Notes: generated from the letters alone by a model not told the origin. DNA of 64,000 nucleotides from Candidatus Uhrbacteria bacterium (GCA_016188475.1 JACPHT010000008.1:34489-98488), one strand, 5' to 3'. Shown: positions 1-63,671, numbered from the stretch's first letter. Made by a program: numbers and translations.

Positions 1-145
1 CGGCTGGAAATATCCGTCCAGCTTTCACTTTCTCGATATTCAACTTGCACAGCATACGCGCCTGCTGTTTTTGGATCTTCTGTGTGAACACGAATCGAGG
101 AGTGGTGTCCGTCAGTGATCGAAAACGTCACCCAAATGGTTTGCT

Positions 146-1279
146 TCATGTTTTCGGCGCCCCAATATCAGCGACGTTTACAACAGCTTGGATGCCGCTG
201 TTACGATCATTGAGCAGATTCGCGCTCTTCAATCGTTGTTCGATCACGAGTCGAGGTGACTCTGCATCCCCACCAGGGTAACGCGCAATAATGCGCGCGC
301 CAATCGCGAGTGCCATTGGTTTGCCGATTGAAACGTCTTCTGCAGAACGAAGTGTGCGACGCGGAGAAGGTCCACCCTGATCCCATGCCTGTTCGGTCGC
401 AAGAGTACGAATCTCGTTTGCGACTTGCACTATGTGAATCGCTTCAGTCTCGCTGATCTTTGTCTTACCAACAAGCCATGGAATTTCCCATTCCGGAGGC
501 GGATATGTGAACTCGTATTCTTCAACTCGATCGCCCATTGCAGAATCAAGCGACTGATTTCCGATGTATCCCGGTCCTACCGGATTGTCAGTCAGAATGA
601 AAATGAATCCTTTCAGACCGTCAATCACGATTGTTCCATCGGTTGTTGTGAACGAGTACTGACCGGTATGATCGAACAATGGATGGAACGGCCCCATGCT
701 GTGACCCATGCGCGAAAACTCATCCAAGCACACAATTGCTTTTGGCCACTGTTTGCTTGAGCGATGTTGTTCGATGAACAACATGAGGTCGCTAGGAACC
801 CACTTTGTCGAACCGTTTTCCGCTGACTCGGCCCCGAACAGATCCTTTGGTTTGAAAATTCCTGTTCCATCAACTTTGATGAACGGCACATCGCCGAGCA
901 CTTTCGCAAGAATCTGTGCGAACGTTGTTTTGCCAGAGCCTTTTGGACCGACAAGTCGAATGCTTCGACCAAAATGAATGTCAGCTTCGATAAGCACGAG
1001 AGTTTCCGGACGAATCCAGAAATCCGCGCCAAGACCTTTGCCATCAATCGAGATGATTTGCCGTTCAAGATGAACAACAACATGAGTTGGACAACGTGCA
1101 GGACCTTTCACTTCAATAAGGCTTGCCGCGAAACGCGCGTTTGCGCAGATTCGATCTGCGAACGATTCAAGATTTCTCACTTCGACTTTTCCCGCGCTCT
1201 TACCGCTTGCGAGAGTTGGTGTGACTGTTCCGTCTTGATCTACGAAAACGACTTCGTATTCTGTCCCGATTGTTGTCAT
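146..1279 (-). CDS. AAA+ ATPase, MoxR/AAA_5 (McrB/CbbQ-like) family with ~110-aa N-terminal extension
   Basis: Walker A LVGPKGSGKTT and Walker B IVCLDEF. C-terminal AAA-lid-like region. GC-rich codon usage unlike host genes. Same strand as and downstream of the retron-type RT. Confidence 0.6.
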   Translation of the reverse strand: MTTIGTEYEVVFVDQDGTVTPTLASGKSAGKVEVRNLESFADRICANARFAASLIEVKGPARCPTHVVVHLERQIISIDGKGLGADFWIRPETLVLIEADIHFGRSIRLVGPKGSGKTTFAQILAKVLGDVPFIKVDGTGIFKPKDLFGAESAENGSTKWVPSDLMLFIEQHRSSKQWPKAIVCLDEFSRMGHSMGPFHPLFDHTGQYSFTTTDGTIVIDGLKGFIFILTDNPVGPGYIGNQSLDSAMGDRVEEYEFTYPPPEWEIPWLVGKTKISETEAIHIVQVANEIRTLATEQAWDQGGPSPRRTLRSAEDVSIGKPMALAIGARIIARYPGGDAESPRLVIEQRLKSANLLNDRNSGIQAVVNVADIGAPKT

Positions 1280-1337
1280 GTTTCTGCCTTTCTAAACAGA
1301 TTTGAATGAACATCTCCTCACATCAAAATATTACACA

Positions 1338-1419
1338 TTGTCATTGCGAGCGACCAACGAGAGCGAAGCAATCTCTTCAAAAAAGAGATCTCTTCGTCGT
1401 CCGACTCCTCGCAATGACA
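1338..1419. repeat. Hairpin element with 12-bp inverted arms ttgtcattgcgag / ctcgcaatgaca and an internal gagatctct palindrome. A related copy lies at 25226-25294.
   Basis: Seen directly. The second copy has arms ttgtcatctcga / tcgagatgacaa and an internal gagagatctctc. Confidence 0.6.
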
Positions 1420-1581
1420 CAAGTAAAACCCTGGTGTAAAAAGCGGTGCCGACTCATAACGAATAGGCACCGCAGTAAAGATCAGCGCAATGGAAGGCGG
1501 CCACGATTACGGTCTCTGACGTAATCGTGGTTGACCCCGGAGCCAAGGGATCCGGGGTCAAAAGCGCGGGAGTATCCCACG

Positions 1582-2002
1582 CTCCCAACTCTCAAGTGCG
1601 TGTTGCACGCGCTCTTGACGAGTCAAGAACCATGGAAGGACGCACGGCTTTGAGGACAGGTCTTGCGAAGCGTCCGCAAAGTCGGCGCGCTGGGACGTAC
1701 ACGAAGTGGCCGTCCCAGTGCGAGTCCGAATGTGCGTCTGTCTTCAAACTCTCAAGCGCGTGTAACACGCGCTCTGATTAGAGTTTGTCTCCTACTCTTT
1801 CGAGTAGGATTAGGTTCAAGTTCAGCACAGAAACAGCACAATGGATAGCGGCCGAGTGACGCTGGACGCGAGTCCTCGAGTGGACAGTGTCACACGGTTG
1901 GACAATGGCGCCATAGCGAAGCGGTGCGCCAGCAGTCCAAAGCGAGAGAAAATCCCTCGTTCCAAACTCTCAAACGCGTGTTGCACGCGTTCTTGACGAG
2001 TC
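1582..2002. repeat. Three direct copies of a 43-bp unit, each itself an imperfect palindrome, at 1582-1624, 1742-1784 and 1960-2002.
   Basis: Unit: caaactctcaa-gcgcgtgt(t/a)(g/a)cacgcg-(c/t)tcttgac/tgagtc. Copies 1 and 3 differ at 2-3 positions. Spacers are ~117 and ~175 bp. Confidence 0.85.
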
Positions 2003-2010
2003 TTGATTGA

Positions 2011-3270
2011 TTATTCCGTTTCCTTAACGAACGAATACGCATGACCTTGACTTATGTCACGAGTTCCAATTCGGAACTGTGTTTTTGCTTTGATGTACAA
2101 CTCGCGGATCGAGCTCGGAAGCTTCTGGTCGTACACCATACTAACGAATCCAACTATCCCGACTAGCAAGCGATGTTCGCGCGTTGTCAAAGGCCACTCG
2201 CGAGCATAAAACTTGTCTGGTGAAAGGTTCGAGTCAAGACTGATTCCTCTTTTCCTGAATGCTACGACATCCTTTTCCATCTGTGCTTTAACAGCCTTGA
2301 GAGCTTCTTCATCACCAGATTGACGCTTGTCTGCAACCTCCAAGAGATTGTGCAGAATCGCGCGGAACTTATTCAACCGCGGTCGCGGAATCGTCAGCCG
2401 GCCGTCCTGATTCGGGATGATTCCCGTAACTTCAGGATACTTCGTTGTCCGTTCTTCGTCACCTTCAGCGCCATCACCAAAGTAAGAAACCTTCGTGCCC
2501 TGAATGGTCCAACCATCAGACCTCACAGCCTGACGAATTTTCTGACGAAGCTTTTTTGGTATCACTTCATCGCTTGAAGAGATTGTGAGATCGTCAACAA
2601 ACCGAGTGTACTTGTAAACTACTCCTTCAGTCGCAGAAGCTGATCGAAGAAGTTGCGAGATGTTTCGATCGACTTGTCCCAGCAGAACATTGAGCACTGC
2701 TGGAGAAGTTGGAAATCCCTGCGGAAGAACATCGTCAACGATGAGCAGATCAACGAAAGTCTCTGCCAGTCGTTTTCCATCCTGTTCTGGAAGACCAGTC
2801 ACAACAGTGATGTAACCAGTGAACGTTGGTCCGAAAATCGCGGAACATCGCTTGCGATTCACTGTCGGAAACGCGTCCTTGAGATCAAGAAGATAAAACG
2901 CTTTCCCGCCCACATGCGCGCGAGCGTTTGTCACGATACTCGTTCCAGGATGTGCCCCATGAACAGCCAAGTGAACCGGAATCCCTTGAATGAACTGCGT
3001 CAAAAGCGCGCGAAGAACTTTCTTGAGCGGATCTGACGGAGCGTGAATCGTCCTGTGTCCCTTTTTCTTGGGAATCTTGTGAATCGTCCACGCATTGCCA
3101 GATGCCCACAAAGCTGTTGTGGCTCTCCATTCTGCTGGATCGATTTTTAGGATTTGACACAAGACTTCTTCAAGTCGTGCGTCAAGAAGAAAAGAAATTG
3201 GTAACCTGCTTTGTTCTGCCATTGTCTCCCCCGTCTGTTTCAGACAGTTGAAGTAATTCCAACGAACCAA
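2011..3270 (-). CDS. Reverse transcriptase, retron-type. Likely true start is the M of MAEQSRLP at about 3222.
   Basis: Motif 1-2 KKGHRTIHAPSDPLKKV. NAxxH box (TNARAH) before YLLDLKDAFPTV. Motif 4 LPQGFPTSP. Motif 5 YTRFVDDLTIS (YxDD). VTG motif (YPEVTGIIP) about 65 aa after YxDD. Block-by-block similarity to my recollection of Ec86 RT. GC-rich. Confidence 0.8.
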   Translation of the reverse strand: MVRWNYFNCLKQTGETMAEQSRLPISFLLDARLEEVLCQILKIDPAEWRATTALWASGNAWTIHKIPKKKGHRTIHAPSDPLKKVLRALLTQFIQGIPVHLAVHGAHPGTSIVTNARAHVGGKAFYLLDLKDAFPTVNRKRCSAIFGPTFTGYITVVTGLPEQDGKRLAETFVDLLIVDDVLPQGFPTSPAVLNVLLGQVDRNISQLLRSASATEGVVYKYTRFVDDLTISSSDEVIPKKLRQKIRQAVRSDGWTIQGTKVSYFGDGAEGDEERTTKYPEVTGIIPNQDGRLTIPRPRLNKFRAILHNLLEVADKRQSGDEEALKAVKAQMEKDVVAFRKRGISLDSNLSPDKFYAREWPLTTREHRLLVGIVGFVSMVYDQKLPSSIRELYIKAKTQFRIGTRDISQGHAYSFVKETE

Positions 3271-3293
3271 AAGAAGGCCCGATGGACCTTCTT
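3271..3293. terminator. Hairpin aagaagg-cccgatgga-ccttctt between RT start and NMNAT stop; possible bidirectional terminator.
   Basis: Perfect 7-bp inverted repeat seen in sequence. The T-run is weak. Confidence 0.3.
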
Positions 3294-3317
3294 ATTTACT
3301 GGAAAACTGAAATATAG

Positions 3318-3797
3318 TCAAGTTCTCATGGCTAAAATATAGCGATAAACCTCTTCTGGCACTTTTTCTTCCCAATCTCCGTCTTTTTTGATTAAAGCAC
3401 GAATATCAGTTGATGAAAAACCAGGAACCTCTTTTATCCATTGAACTTCGACTTTTCCTTCAAAACATTTCTTTGTCCACTCATTTCCAGTCCAAATTTT
3501 ATCAACTCGTCCAACGCGTTCTAAAACATGTTCTGTCCATTTTGCGTCATCTTCATGATCAGGAAGTTCAACAAACTCAACATCAAACATTGGAATTATA
3601 TCTTCGGCTTGAAGCGCGCGTTGAATCATTTCTTTGCGATCAGAAGCAGTGAACGGATTTTCCTCTGAACCACTTTTTTCAGAACTTCCAATTCCAATCA
3701 AAATTTTACCGCAAACTTTTGTCATTCCTTTTATTACCATAAGATGACCGTTGTGAAACGGTTGGAATCGTCCGATGAAAAGACAAGTTGGTTTCAT
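3318..3797 (-). CDS. nadM: Nicotinamide-nucleotide adenylyltransferase, archaeal NadM-type. The ORF track extends to 3902.
   Basis: Motif FIGRFQPFHNGH (HxGH cytidylyltransferase). Size ~160 aa. AT-rich like the host. Confidence 0.7.
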   Translation of the reverse strand: MKPTCLFIGRFQPFHNGHLMVIKGMTKVCGKILIGIGSSEKSGSEENPFTASDRKEMIQRALQAEDIIPMFDVEFVELPDHEDDAKWTEHVLERVGRVDKIWTGNEWTKKCFEGKVEVQWIKEVPGFSSTDIRALIKKDGDWEEKVPEEVYRYILAMRT

Positions 3798-3817
3798 ATG
3801 GAAAAAGTATAGCACAG

Positions 3818-3893
3818 AGTCATGGAGTCTTGGAGTCAAGTCAGTCAATATAGTAGACCAGATTGACTTCATTGACTCATTTGACTTCAAATT
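3818..3893. repeat. Tandem array of TTGACT(C/T)(A/C)-type octamers upstream of nadM. Related arrays lie at 10748-10795, 18256-18368, 39231-39254 and 39656-39735.
   Basis: Seen directly. The 19-mer tcattgactcatttgactt is shared between 3870-3888 and 18329-18347. Confidence 0.6.
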
Positions 3894-3936
3894 ACTTGCC
3901 ACGATAACTATTTTTGATTACAATTCTCGACATCGA

Positions 3937-4010
3937 TCCCGGGTCGTCTAATGGCAGGACATGGGCCTTTGAAGCCCAGTATCGTGGTTCGAATCCACGC
4001 CTGGGAACCA
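3937..4010 (+). tRNA. tRNA-Gln (anticodon TTG)
   Basis: Cloverleaf folded by eye. Acceptor tcccggg/cctggga. Anticodon stem tgggc/gccca with loop ctttgaa. T-loop ttcgaat. 3' CCA encoded. Confidence 0.8.
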
Positions 4011-4069
4011 TAAAACCTCTAGAATTGGATGCATTACGAAGCGAAAGTGACGCAACAATTCTGGAGGTT

Positions 4070-4984
4070 TTATACTTTCAAGTACTTCCTCATTGCCAAT
4101 CCTGTCGAAAACAAAGTCAACAAAACCAAACCAACAAACTCCAGACCAAAAATCATCAAACCGTTTTGTTCAAAATAATTCACAAGACCGATTGACTCGC
4201 CACCAATAAAAAATCCGAACTTCGGTTCAAATATCGCGATCAACGGATACACAATCAATAGAATTACAAAAATCGAAATCAGACTTAACAAAATCATCTC
4301 AAGAAAAAACGGTGCACGTACAAAACGGTCAGAAGCGCCGACGAGTTTCATGATTCCAATTTCTTCCCTGTGGATAAAGATGCTCATGCGAACGGTATTA
4401 AACACGATCAAAATTGCAATCAGCAAAAATATCACACTTAACGCAACTCCAAATGTGCGAACGCGATCGGTTGTGTTTTTGATTCTTGTCACAACATCCG
4501 AATAATTTGAAAAATCTTTTTGGCGAATAGAATCACTGAATTTCGGATTTTCAAGCGCTTTCAAAATAAAATCAAAATCTGAAACATTCTGTGCTTTAAC
4601 AATCAAAGATGGTCCAAAAGGATTGCCACCTATTTCTTCAAGTGAAGCAACTATTGCCTCGTCTTGTTTATGGATCAAAATGAATCTATCCAACGATTCT
4701 TGCGCGCTGACAGTTTGAACGTCTTTAACTTGTGAGAGTGATCTTAAATAATCGACAGCATTATCAATGGTTGTTTGCGGAGCTGACCCGTGAAAATAAA
4801 CGGAAATTTCTACACGATCTTCAATAGTTTGAATTGCTTGATTGGTTACAAAATTCAAAATGATCAAAATGTTTACAGTGAGAAGCGTCATCACAAGCAT
4901 CGTGATTGTGATAACTGATAACCAAAAATTTCTCCAAAAATTTTGAAAAGCAAATTTTGTGACTCGATAAGTTGATATAAACAT
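4070..4984 (-). CDS. ftsX: Cell division permease FtsX-like
   Basis: N-terminal cytoplasmic segment, TM, large extracellular loop and C-terminal 3 TM. Adjacent to ftsE. Confidence 0.7.
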   Translation of the reverse strand: MFISTYRVTKFAFQNFWRNFWLSVITITMLVMTLLTVNILIILNFVTNQAIQTIEDRVEISVYFHGSAPQTTIDNAVDYLRSLSQVKDVQTVSAQESLDRFILIHKQDEAIVASLEEIGGNPFGPSLIVKAQNVSDFDFILKALENPKFSDSIRQKDFSNYSDVVTRIKNTTDRVRTFGVALSVIFLLIAILIVFNTVRMSIFIHREEIGIMKLVGASDRFVRAPFFLEMILLSLISIFVILLIVYPLIAIFEPKFGFFIGGESIGLVNYFEQNGLMIFGLEFVGLVLLTLFSTGLAMRKYLKV

Positions 4985-62326: not shown

Positions 62327-63671
62327 TAGCCGTTAGTTTTGCTCTTCGGAGAAATTCCTCTCTATTCTTATACGGCCCAACAACCCCTATTCCCATTCTC
62401 GAAAAATTTATCACTTCTTTTGCAACACGTTTTATATCCGAAGCTGTTTGCGAATCGATCTGTTTCAAAAACGCGTGCGGAGATTTCATACGACGATGAA
62501 ACATTTGTTGTTTTGCATACCATTCAGCTTGATGAAATGAATCCTCCATCTGAATCGCAACCTGCCCATGCAAAAATGTTTTTGCATCTTTCAACTCTTC
62601 GTCTGTGATTCCAAATCGTGCGACTGAACGCAATTCATTCATGATTGTTTTCATTGCAAGCGGAAGACGTTTTTGATCAAGTCCTGCTCGCACAATAAAA
62701 TACCCAACATCTTCGTAAGCTTCCATGTCTGTGCCAACTCGGTACGCCAACCCTCGCCGTTCACGAACTTGAATGAATAATCTCGAACTCATATTTCCAC
62801 CAAGAACTATCGAAAGCAAGCTCAAGGCTGTATTGCGGTCATCATCAATTCCGTATGACGGAAAACCAATTGTAATCTGAATCTGTTCTGTTTTTTTTGT
62901 TTGTATGCGAACGTGCGGAGCTGACTTTGAGTCTTTGCGATCTAGAAACGGCTCAAACTTTGCTCGATGATCTTTCTCTGCTTTTTTTCTTCCAAAACAT
63001 TTTTCAATTATCGTTCGCGCGTGAGAATCTATATTTCCAGACACAACCAAAACCATGTTTGAAGGAGAATAATTCGATTTGTAATACTTATATATTTCTT
63101 CACGCGACATTTCTGTAATTGTTTTGTGTGTTCCAACAACATTTCTTCCAAGAACATGACCGTCAAAAAGCGCCTCCTCAATCAAATCCTCAACATGATG
63201 TATCGGATTTTCTCGATACAAGTTGATCTCTTCAATAATAACCCCTTTCTCACGATTGATTTCTTTTTCATCAAATTTCGAATTAAAAAGCATGTCTGAC
63301 AAAATATCAAGTGAAAGTGGAAGCGCTTTACGATCTGATTTTACATAATAACCAGTAACGCATTTTGAAGTGAACGCATTGAACTCTGCGCCAATCGAAT
63401 CAAGAGCACGTGTAATTTTTTGCGTGTTCTGACGACGTTGTGTTCCTTTGAACATTAGGTGTTCCACAAAATGCGTCACACCATTCATTGAAGACGACTC
63501 GTAACGTGCTCCGATTCTAACAAAAACAAGAGCGGTCACAGTGTCTGTGCCTTTGATTGGGTTTAACAAAACACGCAAACCATTTTTTAGAGTGATGTGA
63601 TGCATAAACTTCTCTGTCATTGTAAACCCTTCGACTCCGACCAAGCATTGCCTGAGCTTGTCGAAGGCCAT
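62319..63671 (-). CDS. M16 (pitrilysin) family zinc peptidase
   Basis: HFVEHLMFKGT (HxxEH). Confidence 0.75.
   Translation of the reverse strand: MAFDKLRQCLVGVEGFTMTEKFMHHITLKNGLRVLLNPIKGTDTVTALVFVRIGARYESSSMNGVTHFVEHLMFKGTQRRQNTQKITRALDSIGAEFNAFTSKCVTGYYVKSDRKALPLSLDILSDMLFNSKFDEKEINREKGVIIEEINLYRENPIHHVEDLIEEALFDGHVLGRNVVGTHKTITEMSREEIYKYYKSNYSPSNMVLVVSGNIDSHARTIIEKCFGRKKAEKDHRAKFEPFLDRKDSKSAPHVRIQTKKTEQIQITIGFPSYGIDDDRNTALSLLSIVLGGNMSSRLFIQVRERRGLAYRVGTDMEAYEDVGYFIVRAGLDQKRLPLAMKTIMNELRSVARFGITDEELKDAKTFLHGQVAIQMEDSFHQAEWYAKQQMFHRRMKSPHAFLKQIDSQTASDIKRVAKEVINFSRMGIGVVGPYKNREEFLRRAKLTANG

Follow-up and report, generated by a model that had tools for sequence, protein, structure and literature searches.

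Retrons have been sorted into 13 types by Mestre et al. 2020, and none of these types has an AAA_5/MoxR or von Willebrand factor A (VWA) partner (PMC7736814). Type XIII retrons, whose reverse transcriptases (RTs) form clade 10 (Mx162, Mx65, Sa163, and Ne144), carry a single msr-msd and are defined by a cluster-114 protein with a DEDE motif, a winged helix, and a SWIM Zn finger, usually accompanied by a HEAT/ARM protein (PMC7736814). Several tandem msr-msd units served by one RT are found in engineered retron arrays ("multitrons"), which are synthetic (PMC10370050). UG27 is a class-2 Unknown Group (UG) RT of prophages of Bacteroidota and Bacillota, encoded with sORF and bORF proteins that have no recognizable domains (10.64898/2026.09.22.753630). 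A thresholding role in conflict systems has been proposed for MoxR-vWA couples, some of which lie beside the RTs of diversity-generating retroelements (DGRs) (Kaur et al. 2020, PMC7159879). Here we describe a system at one end of a 64,000-nt stretch of the Candidatus Uhrbacteria genome (GCA_016188475.1 JACPHT010000008.1:34489-98488; the window), in which a retron-type RT gene is followed by an array of structured noncoding RNA (ncRNA) units and by genes for a predicted MoxR-class ATPase and a VWA protein. Its conserved layout matches no described retron type, which agrees with an original prediction made from the window's sequence. The searched literature holds no report of a natural retron-clade array, full-text searches for retrons with MoxR or von Willebrand returned nothing relevant, and a 2026 survey of metagenome retrons does not mention AAA, VWA, or Patescibacteria.

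The host belongs to the Patescibacteria/Parcubacteria group. Every gene of the system lies on the minus strand, in the order RT, noncoding tract, ATPase, and a gene at the window edge:

2011 to 3222, minus strand: RT gene, 403 aa from the ATG at 3222
2010 to 1280, minus strand: noncoding tract, 730 nt, 53% GC
146 to 1279, minus strand: gene for a predicted MoxR-class AAA+ ATPase, 377 aa, with an AAA_5 match
1 to 149, minus strand: 5' end of a gene for a protein with HExxH and VWA (metal ion-dependent adhesion site, MIDAS), cut by the window start

The start codon of the last gene, at 149, overlaps the ATPase stop (ATGA at 149-146), so that the block does run off the window as had been noted. 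A 23-kb public contig with the exact ATPase sequence (L001; public loci are numbered in this way throughout) reaches past the window start and completes the cut gene. The VWA partner that the original prediction proposed to seek there proved to be a 632-aa HExxH-VWA protein. Upstream of the RT, a nicotinamide mononucleotide adenylyltransferase-like gene (nadM) ends at 3318 (NF002243, 3.5e-34), with a terminator-like hairpin and T-run on its 3' side at 3293-3269. From the nadM stop to the RT ATG there are 95 nt, partly taken by this hairpin; they give no covariance model match and are too short for an ncRNA of ~200 nt, so the earlier statement that there is no room for an upstream msr/msd holds.

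By its profile matches and motifs, the window RT belongs to the retron clade, as had been recognized from its motifs. It matches RVT_1 at 7.5e-14. Its best PADLOC profile is RT_XIII (3e-44, 150 bits) and the remaining strong matches are all retron RTs; the lead of RT_XIII is modest, with 131 bits for RT_other and RT_outgroup, and the same profile ranks first for all 20 family members and for three distant relatives. Among NCBIfam models, retron St85, Ec67, and TIR-retron score 86-136 bits, compared with ≤20 bits for Drt3a and Drt3b (class-2 UG) and for group II introns, and no DGR RT profile matches. When a profile of the 20-member family is compared with solved structures, the Ec86 RT comes out best (E = 1.5e-25; profile positions 40-320 on Ec86 42-291), as the block-for-block alignment of the original prediction had implied. 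Ec67, Ec78, and Ec83 follow, whereas E is no better than about 1e-5 to 1e-4 for DRT1 and group II intron RTs. Invariant in all 20 members are NAxxH (N99-A100-x-x-H103), QGFPTSP, R(F/Y)VDD (D210-D211), and VTG (V265-T266-G267). Group II intron and DRT-type identities were considered and excluded on their far lower profile scores.

The mechanically called open reading frame (ORF) of the RT spans 3270-2011 and gives 419 aa from a TTG, against 403 aa from the ATG at 3222, the start used in public gene calls. Because a GGGGGAG Shine-Dalgarno sequence precedes this ATG and the TTG lies inside the T-run of the nadM terminator-like hairpin, the ATG at 3222 is the likely true start. The closest RTs outside the family are Myxococcota proteins of ~720 aa (P0022-P0026; L163 8001-10166) in which two stretches match RVT_1, as in a tandem or duplicated RT; they have no ATPase or VWA gene nearby. 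A tblastn search of phage genomes with the RT, in which UG27-like relatives were sought, gave only matches below 30% identity, and L165, the one of these loci inspected closely, has no long intergenic array.

The tract downstream of the RT had been described as one GC-rich region of ~700 bp packed with stems and containing three 43-bp palindromic direct repeats. Strong structure is indeed present: compared with shuffled sequences, the fold of 2010-1280 has z = -10.4 in the sense and -11.6 in the antisense direction. There are also three repeat copies (1582-1615, 1742-1775, and 1960-1993), but their size and nature differ from the description, since they are 34-68-nt units with a common 17-19-nt palindromic hairpin (e.g., GCGCGTG-TTA-CACGCGC, flanked by TTGAG/TGAGAG). 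Instead of a single RNA with three repeats, the tract holds three ncRNA units in tandem, and it is the cognate ncRNA region. Each unit begins with a handle, for which we built a 72-nt covariance model (R1). The handle is made up of a closing helix (P0), an internal loop, and an 8-bp hairpin (H1); downstream of it lie variable hairpins and then a short conserved tail. The array and the ATPase leader contain the following features:

1834 to 2013, minus strand: ncRNA unit 1 (alpha); handle 2013-1942, H1 1991-1973; R1 57.1 bits, E = 5e-13
1791 to 1808, minus strand: spacer hairpin CCTACTC-GAAA-GAGTAGG between units 1 and 2, from direct reading and a minimum free energy (MFE) fold
1628 to 1795, minus strand: ncRNA unit 2 (beta); handle 1795-1724, H1 1773-1755; R1 53.2 bits, E = 5.9e-12
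1480 to 1635, minus strand: ncRNA unit 3 (alpha); handle 1635-1564, H1 1613-1595; R1 48.6 bits, E = 1.2e-10
1438 to 1473, minus strand: terminator-like hairpin GCGGTGCC...GGCACCGC with a T5 run at the array end, from inverted repeat I10 and direct reading
1339 to 1419, minus strand: 12-bp perfect inverted repeat TGTCATTGCGAG/CTCGCAATGACA (I5) enclosing a second hairpin, in the ATPase leader

Unit 1 overlaps the RT stop codon, and between its handle and the conserved tail GCCGCTATCCATTGTGCTG lie three variable hairpins (consensus fold of seven alpha units). The variable domain of unit 2 is closed by GACGCAC/GTGCGTC and followed by the tail CTTCCATGG (MFE fold), and the hairpins of unit 3, which include an 11-bp perfect stem, lead to the tail GCCGCCTTCCATTGCGCTG. 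The spacer hairpin is kept in L083 and L084 with a changed stem sequence.

The structure of the units is supported by covariation across the family. Matches to R1 in family loci occur only on the sense strand and between the RT and ATPase genes, with one to nine units per locus (three in the window); the exceptions are lone handles in the 5' untranslated region (UTR) of the RT in three loci. No match was found in any of seven non-family retron-like loci searched, and the best match in a second set of eight loci had E = 0.18, which is chance level. H1 is 97.3% paired and shows compensatory two-sided changes at seven of its eight pairs; its score is reached by none of 500 shuffles, and slid registers also fall far below it. 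Many of the sense-strand pairs are G-U, which would be A-C mismatches on the opposite strand, so the structure is that of an RNA of the RT strand; we took the strand from this covariation because fold energy (z = -10.4 versus -11.6) fails to separate the two. The register of P0 shifts among loci, and cognate pairing beats non-cognate pairing (p = 1.4e-6).

Two subgroups can be told apart among the close loci. In the window subgroup (L001, L003, L004, and L083-L085), the tail motif is YUCCAU(U)G, and two unit types alternate: alpha-beta-alpha in the window, beta-alpha-beta-alpha in L084, and beta-alpha in L003. In the second Uhrbacteria subgroup (L005, L006, L008, L009, and L086-L088), the tail motif is RGGAU, and MFE folds place a closing helix of 8-14 bp (a1/a2) around the units. 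Inside it lie, in order, a small hairpin (in most units), the handle, a linker, long hairpins of up to ~20 perfect pairs, GGAU, and the 3' arm; the predicted fold of these units is an msr-msd topology. Their arms pair better with cognate than with non-cognate partners (p = 1.7e-6), a score of 7 being reached by 20 of 31 cognate pairs versus 25%.

The distant loci L167, L171, and L172 have units of 235-270 nt, closed by covarying a1/a2 helices of 8-13 bp. Their spacers hold two, three, and one units, with arms such as AAAUUCUAUUC/GAAUAGAAUUU and CCCUAUUC/GAAUAGGG that enclose three to four short hairpins and then the long hairpin or hairpins. R1 misses these units, which were located by eye and by folding. 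Opposing Gs are present in five of the six (GCU after a1, UUCG or UUUG before a2), with L172 fitting less well. With a1/a2 closure seen in the second subgroup and at the distant loci, the family taken together looks retron-like, and the window units look like a derived or differently organized form of the family's units. A 9-bp match in L001 (1977-1985 / 2344-2352 in L001 coordinates) was considered as an a1/a2 pair and rejected: It is a product of the near-palindromic repeat and clashes with the handle supported by covariation.

The lone handles, which consist of P0 and H1 without a variable domain, are at 7829-7896 in L009, 7928-7967 in L087, and 2153-2184 in L088. Their 3' strand abuts a GGAGG Shine-Dalgarno sequence and the start codon, with a TTGACA-type promoter-like site and a terminator-like hairpin upstream. 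From this position, the lone handle may be a site of RT autoregulation. The window has no equivalent upstream of its RT.

In eight of 12 loci, the window not among them, one long hairpin of the array carries in its 5' arm a tandem CTGACA-N4-CTGACA with a 10-nt period:

L003, 3965: tandem CTGACA site
L085, 9510: tandem CTGACA site
L005, 3339: tandem CTGACA site
L006, 9223: tandem CTGACA site
L009, 10243: tandem CTGACA site
L086, 9592: tandem CTGACA site
L087, 9997: tandem CTGACA site
L088, 4408: tandem CTGACA site

CTGACA/TGTCAG occurs 3.3 times per kilobase in the arrays versus 0.48 outside them, and the tandem resembles a protein-binding site, one that would be displayed on a DNA hairpin.

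In L001, L003, L004, L005, L006, and L008, the array stops before the ATPase leader at a hairpin with a T-run; L009 has the hairpin, with a T-poor tract after it. A simple promoter and terminator scan, whose counts were at chance, missed the minus-strand terminator-like hairpins (the array-end hairpin went unflagged because its loop exceeds 8 nt), and the evidence for these is direct reading and their recurrence at other loci. L084 and L009 carry the I5 repeat of the ATPase leader with compensatory changes, L003 and L085 lack it, and this distribution gives it the look of an insertion. Elsewhere in the window, no clear second copy turns up; the one match with two mismatches, at 62649, is at about chance level. 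A seven-codon ORF (MFIQICL) follows a GAGGAG ~40 nt upstream of the ATPase start (within 1280-1330), with a similar one in L084; L003 has no ATG at this position, which makes a conserved leader peptide improbable.

As the original prediction had it, the next gene encodes a MoxR-like ATPase with an N-terminal extension. The protein matches AAA_5 at 4.6e-11, and its N-terminal ~95 aa form a beta-rich domain. Walker A (GPKGxGKT), Walker B (CLDEF), and GGPSPRRTL are invariant in the family. Sequence searches retrieve Midasin, NorQ, and CbbQ, and the structural neighbors are CbbQ, RavA, and NorQ, which together identify the predicted protein as a member of the MoxR class. The 632-aa partner has a C-terminal VWA/MIDAS domain (structure model with pLDDT 81.5). 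Its family profile finds NorD at 1.9e-5, and its structural neighbors are the MIDAS domains of NorD and Midasin. The MIDAS residues (D476-x-S478-x-S480, T537, and D565) are invariant, as is an HExxH motif (H157, E158, and H161) followed by MDRRxDD. With an AAA_5 domain intact in Walker A and B and a C-terminal VWA domain with a complete MIDAS, the two proteins have what defines a MoxR AAA+/VWA pair. From sequence and structure models, this is a pair of the NorQ/NorD, CbbQ/CbbO, or CobS/CobT kind with an additional putative metal-binding domain.

The components of the system stay together. In each of the 11 close loci whose sequence reaches far enough, RT, array (one to nine units), AAA_5 ATPase, and VWA genes are co-linear on the same strand. 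Homologs of the ATPase and the VWA protein occur at none of ~150 other retron-like RT loci. An exhaustive VWA profile search brought in the distant loci, where RT, long spacer, AAA_5, and VWA genes recur in three of three cases with RTs 27-29% identical to that of the window. The ATPase linkage at issue in the original prediction is thus seen in homologous loci near and far, and nothing that the prediction had named as speaking against it was found.

The arrays turn over quickly, and whole-unit differences are seen between loci with RTs that are 87-90% identical; for example, L084, whose RT is 87% identical, starts its array with an additional unit, of which L083 has a truncated version. The family is small: a word-indexed search of 5.8 billion proteins gave 17 VWA and 15 ATPase clusters, and the exhaustive search gave 37 VWA representatives at E ≤ 1e-30. 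No member of the VWA family was found in IMG/VR viral contigs. Small genes of the bAvd/23S_rRNA_IVP family lie near two distant RT-ATPase-VWA loci (L172 788-1156 and L173 7042-7260).

The chromosomal site is also shared. The window and L001 give the same context, ftsE-ftsX-tRNA-nadM, then the system, then uvrB; in L001, the ATPase gene is followed by the gene for the 632-aa protein, two small genes without a Pfam match, uvrB, uvrA, and uvrC. L003, L085, and L086 have ftsX and nadM upstream and uvrB downstream, with an ftsE match only in L003 and L085. The RTs of these same-site loci are only 41-66% identical, and in L086, the RT is 41% identical, compared with 73% for UvrB and 63% for FtsX. 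The original prediction had noted a GC contrast with the host and the proximity of a tRNA-Gln gene. Both observations stand: GC is 0.498 in the system versus 0.421 in the remaining window, and the tRNA-Gln gene (3937-4010, plus strand) is ~670-715 nt from the RT start. Neither marks a recent island, given the synteny and the GC excess elsewhere. In 10 of 10 loci (L001, L003, L005, L006, L008, L009, and L084-L087), the system exceeds its left flank by 4-11 points, with left-flank GC ranging from 39% to 51%, and its right flank by 1-9 points; the excess is a persistent compositional signature and not a mark of recent transfer. A recurrent site in diverged hosts, with a GC excess at any host GC, argues against a recent tRNA-targeted island and favors a long-resident system or one exchanged among members of the lineage. 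Between the VWA gene and uvrB, only L001 (5917-6784) and L084 (13326-15295) encode proteins of 228 and 63 aa without a Pfam match, L084 having three paralogs of the former and two copies of the gene for the latter; these small genes are variable cargo outside the conserved system.

We consider it reasonably probable that this is a retron-type system of unusual layout on the Candidatus Uhrbacteria chromosome, in which complexes of RT and cDNA control a MoxR-VWA module. The RT and the three units would be co-transcribed up to the terminator-like hairpin. The RT would bind each handle, whose P0, internal loop, and H1 would be the msr-like part, and the fast-evolving long hairpins would serve as the msd-like template, copied into a small single-stranded DNA hairpin, so that one RT would yield several different msDNA-like products. 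The MoxR ATPase and the VWA/HExxH protein would form an effector or sensor module, restrained or armed by the RT-cDNA complexes; phage factors that disturb the cDNA or the RT would release the module and lead to growth arrest, possibly by proteolysis or protein remodeling. What the sequences show is the order of the genes and how well it is conserved, the RT clade with its catalytic motifs, the covarying RNA structure and its strand, the array with its gain and loss of units, and the intactness of the ATPase, MIDAS, and HExxH motifs. Transcription of RT and array together, cDNA synthesis with 2'-5' priming, complexes of protein with nucleic acid, and a role against phages are inferred by analogy, and the mechanism is proposed because of what retrons (PMC7736814) and MoxR-VWA pairs (PMC7159879) do elsewhere. 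A bolder version, which we put forward tentatively and think has the weaker chance of being right, is a natural "multiplex retron": The array would yield a repertoire of hairpins, each a decoy or sensor for phage factors and all feeding one MoxR-VWA(HExxH) executioner, with units added or swapped like CRISPR spacers.

Several observations weigh against this interpretation. The ncRNA is downstream of the RT and multi-copy, unlike in described retrons, and Rfam (E ≤ 1, positions 1-4200) matches nothing besides the tRNA-Gln. In the window subgroup, the a1/a2 closure is not detectable (p = 0.73); its units abut head to tail, and just a 4-bp GGAR/YUCC helix closes the variable domain. No consistent priming G can be assigned in Uhrbacteria units, including those of the window. 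Reverse transcription of the units is putative, the production of cDNA from them being argued from analogy. The isolated HExxH domain of five family members has no Pfam match even at E = 10, which leaves a protease function a guess at the motif level. Conserved synteny, absence from IMG/VR, and the lack of neighboring defense genes leave the defense role unproven.

Some of these points suit a different reading, in which the array works as in UG27 systems: Each unit would give a short unbranched cDNA hairpin, with ATPase and VWA protein as cofactors of cDNA synthesis and with neither a 2'-5' branch nor toxin/antitoxin logic. UG27, described in a September 2026 preprint, sets the precedent of an RT with two accessory proteins and variable arrays of ~150-nt units that give short cDNA hairpins and gain and lose units (10.64898/2026.09.22.753630). 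The arrays of the present family behave alike in unit number and turnover, the window subgroup is missing a1/a2, and the variable domain is followed on its 3' side by a short conserved GGAU or CCAU, at the place of the AUC at which UG27 initiates. The RT, however, is in the retron clade and not class-2 UG, the partners have clear AAA_5 and VWA domains, unlike sORF and bORF, and a1/a2 closure in half of the close loci and all distant ones, with opposing Gs in five of six distant units, points toward retrons, so we regard this reading as unlikely, if worth keeping in mind. We give rather little credence to a domesticated, vertically inherited cellular module without an anti-phage role, in which, for example, hairpins of cDNA or RNA would titrate a DNA-binding protein or MoxR/VWA would remodel a host complex. 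It would suit the single chromosomal site across loci with such diverged RTs (41-66% identity), the absence of the family from viral contigs, and the tandem CTGACA-N4-CTGACA in eight of 12 loci, which resembles a protein-binding site with its repeats one helical turn apart. Vertical inheritance likewise marks type XIII retrons, the nearest RT clade (PMC7736814). The proteins, however, diverge much faster than their flanks (L086 RT 41% versus UvrB 73% and FtsX 63%), close relatives gain and lose units, and the family is patchy and small. To our knowledge, the functionally characterized retrons are all defense systems, which we also count against domestication.

A recent mobile island beside the tRNA-Gln, whose repeats would be remnants of its ends or nonfunctional repetitive DNA, would account for block GC above that of the host and for a tRNA gene ~700 nt away. 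But nadM separates the tRNA from the RT, there is neither an integrase gene nor a direct repeat of the tRNA end, and the same insertion context recurs in diverged genomes with a GC excess in 10 of 10 loci. The covariation is of RNA type, with its G-U pairs on one strand only. We reject such an artifact as very improbable on the syntenic site, the GC excess everywhere, and the RNA covariation. If the retron-type interpretation is correct, the system would be a retron type set apart from the 13 described ones by three features: downstream ncRNA, fast-turnover arrays of one to nine units, and a MoxR plus HExxH-VWA partner. Together with UG27, it would mean that ncRNA arrays arose in two separate RT lineages. 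With several templates served by a single RT, it would provide a natural model for multiplexed genome editing with retrons, and it would tie MoxR-VWA remodeling machines to nucleic-acid-based sensing. It would also be an RT-based system stably kept in Patescibacteria. Few defense systems are known from the reduced-genome bacteria of the candidate phyla.

Set against the definition of a retron, the system has an RT of the right clade with NAxxH, VTG, and the catalytic box, a structured ncRNA on the RT strand, and linked accessory genes; it departs from the definition in that there is no single ncRNA upstream of the RT, the three units of the window all being downstream. Its RT resembles that of Ec86 (type II-A) in aligning over fingers, palm, and thumb and in NAxxH and VTG. 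Ec86 differs in having one msr-msd upstream and a nucleoside deoxyribosyltransferase-like effector, and the ncRNAs share no sequence or Rfam-level similarity. Type XIII is matched in the best RT profile, in long stable msd-type hairpins, and in signs of vertical inheritance. The differences are the position of the ncRNA 3' of the RT, its multiple copies, and the MoxR ATPase and HExxH-VWA partners; no SWIM or HEAT domain occurs among the neighbors (nadM, the ATPase, the VWA protein, and the two L001 proteins without a Pfam match).

On the protein side, the system shares with NorQ-NorD, CbbQ-CbbO, and CobS-CobT an AAA_5 ATPase, intact in its Walker A/B and sensor motifs, whose gene adjoins and overlaps that of a protein of ~630 aa that has a VWA domain with a complete MIDAS at its C-terminal end. 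None of these known pairs is linked to a retron RT or an ncRNA array, and the HExxH/MDRRxDD domain is extra here. The RT linked with the systems of Kaur et al. is not of the retron kind; as a DGR RT, it diversifies a protein (PMC7159879). UG27 is set apart by the Drt3a/b model scores (≤20 versus 130-150 bits for retrons) and by its published description, with no UG27 sequence compared directly. The present family differs from it in its retron-clade RT, its place on a Patescibacteria chromosome, its MoxR/VWA partners, its units of 160-350 nt, and a different handle. The two have in common an RT with two accessory proteins and a long intergenic array, in which structure is kept while sequence is diverse and unit number varies, and in both, short conserved motifs flank a central variable hairpin, which in UG27 gives rise to short cDNA hairpins. 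The ncRNA arrays of UG27 RTs are the nearest functional analog of the array described here.

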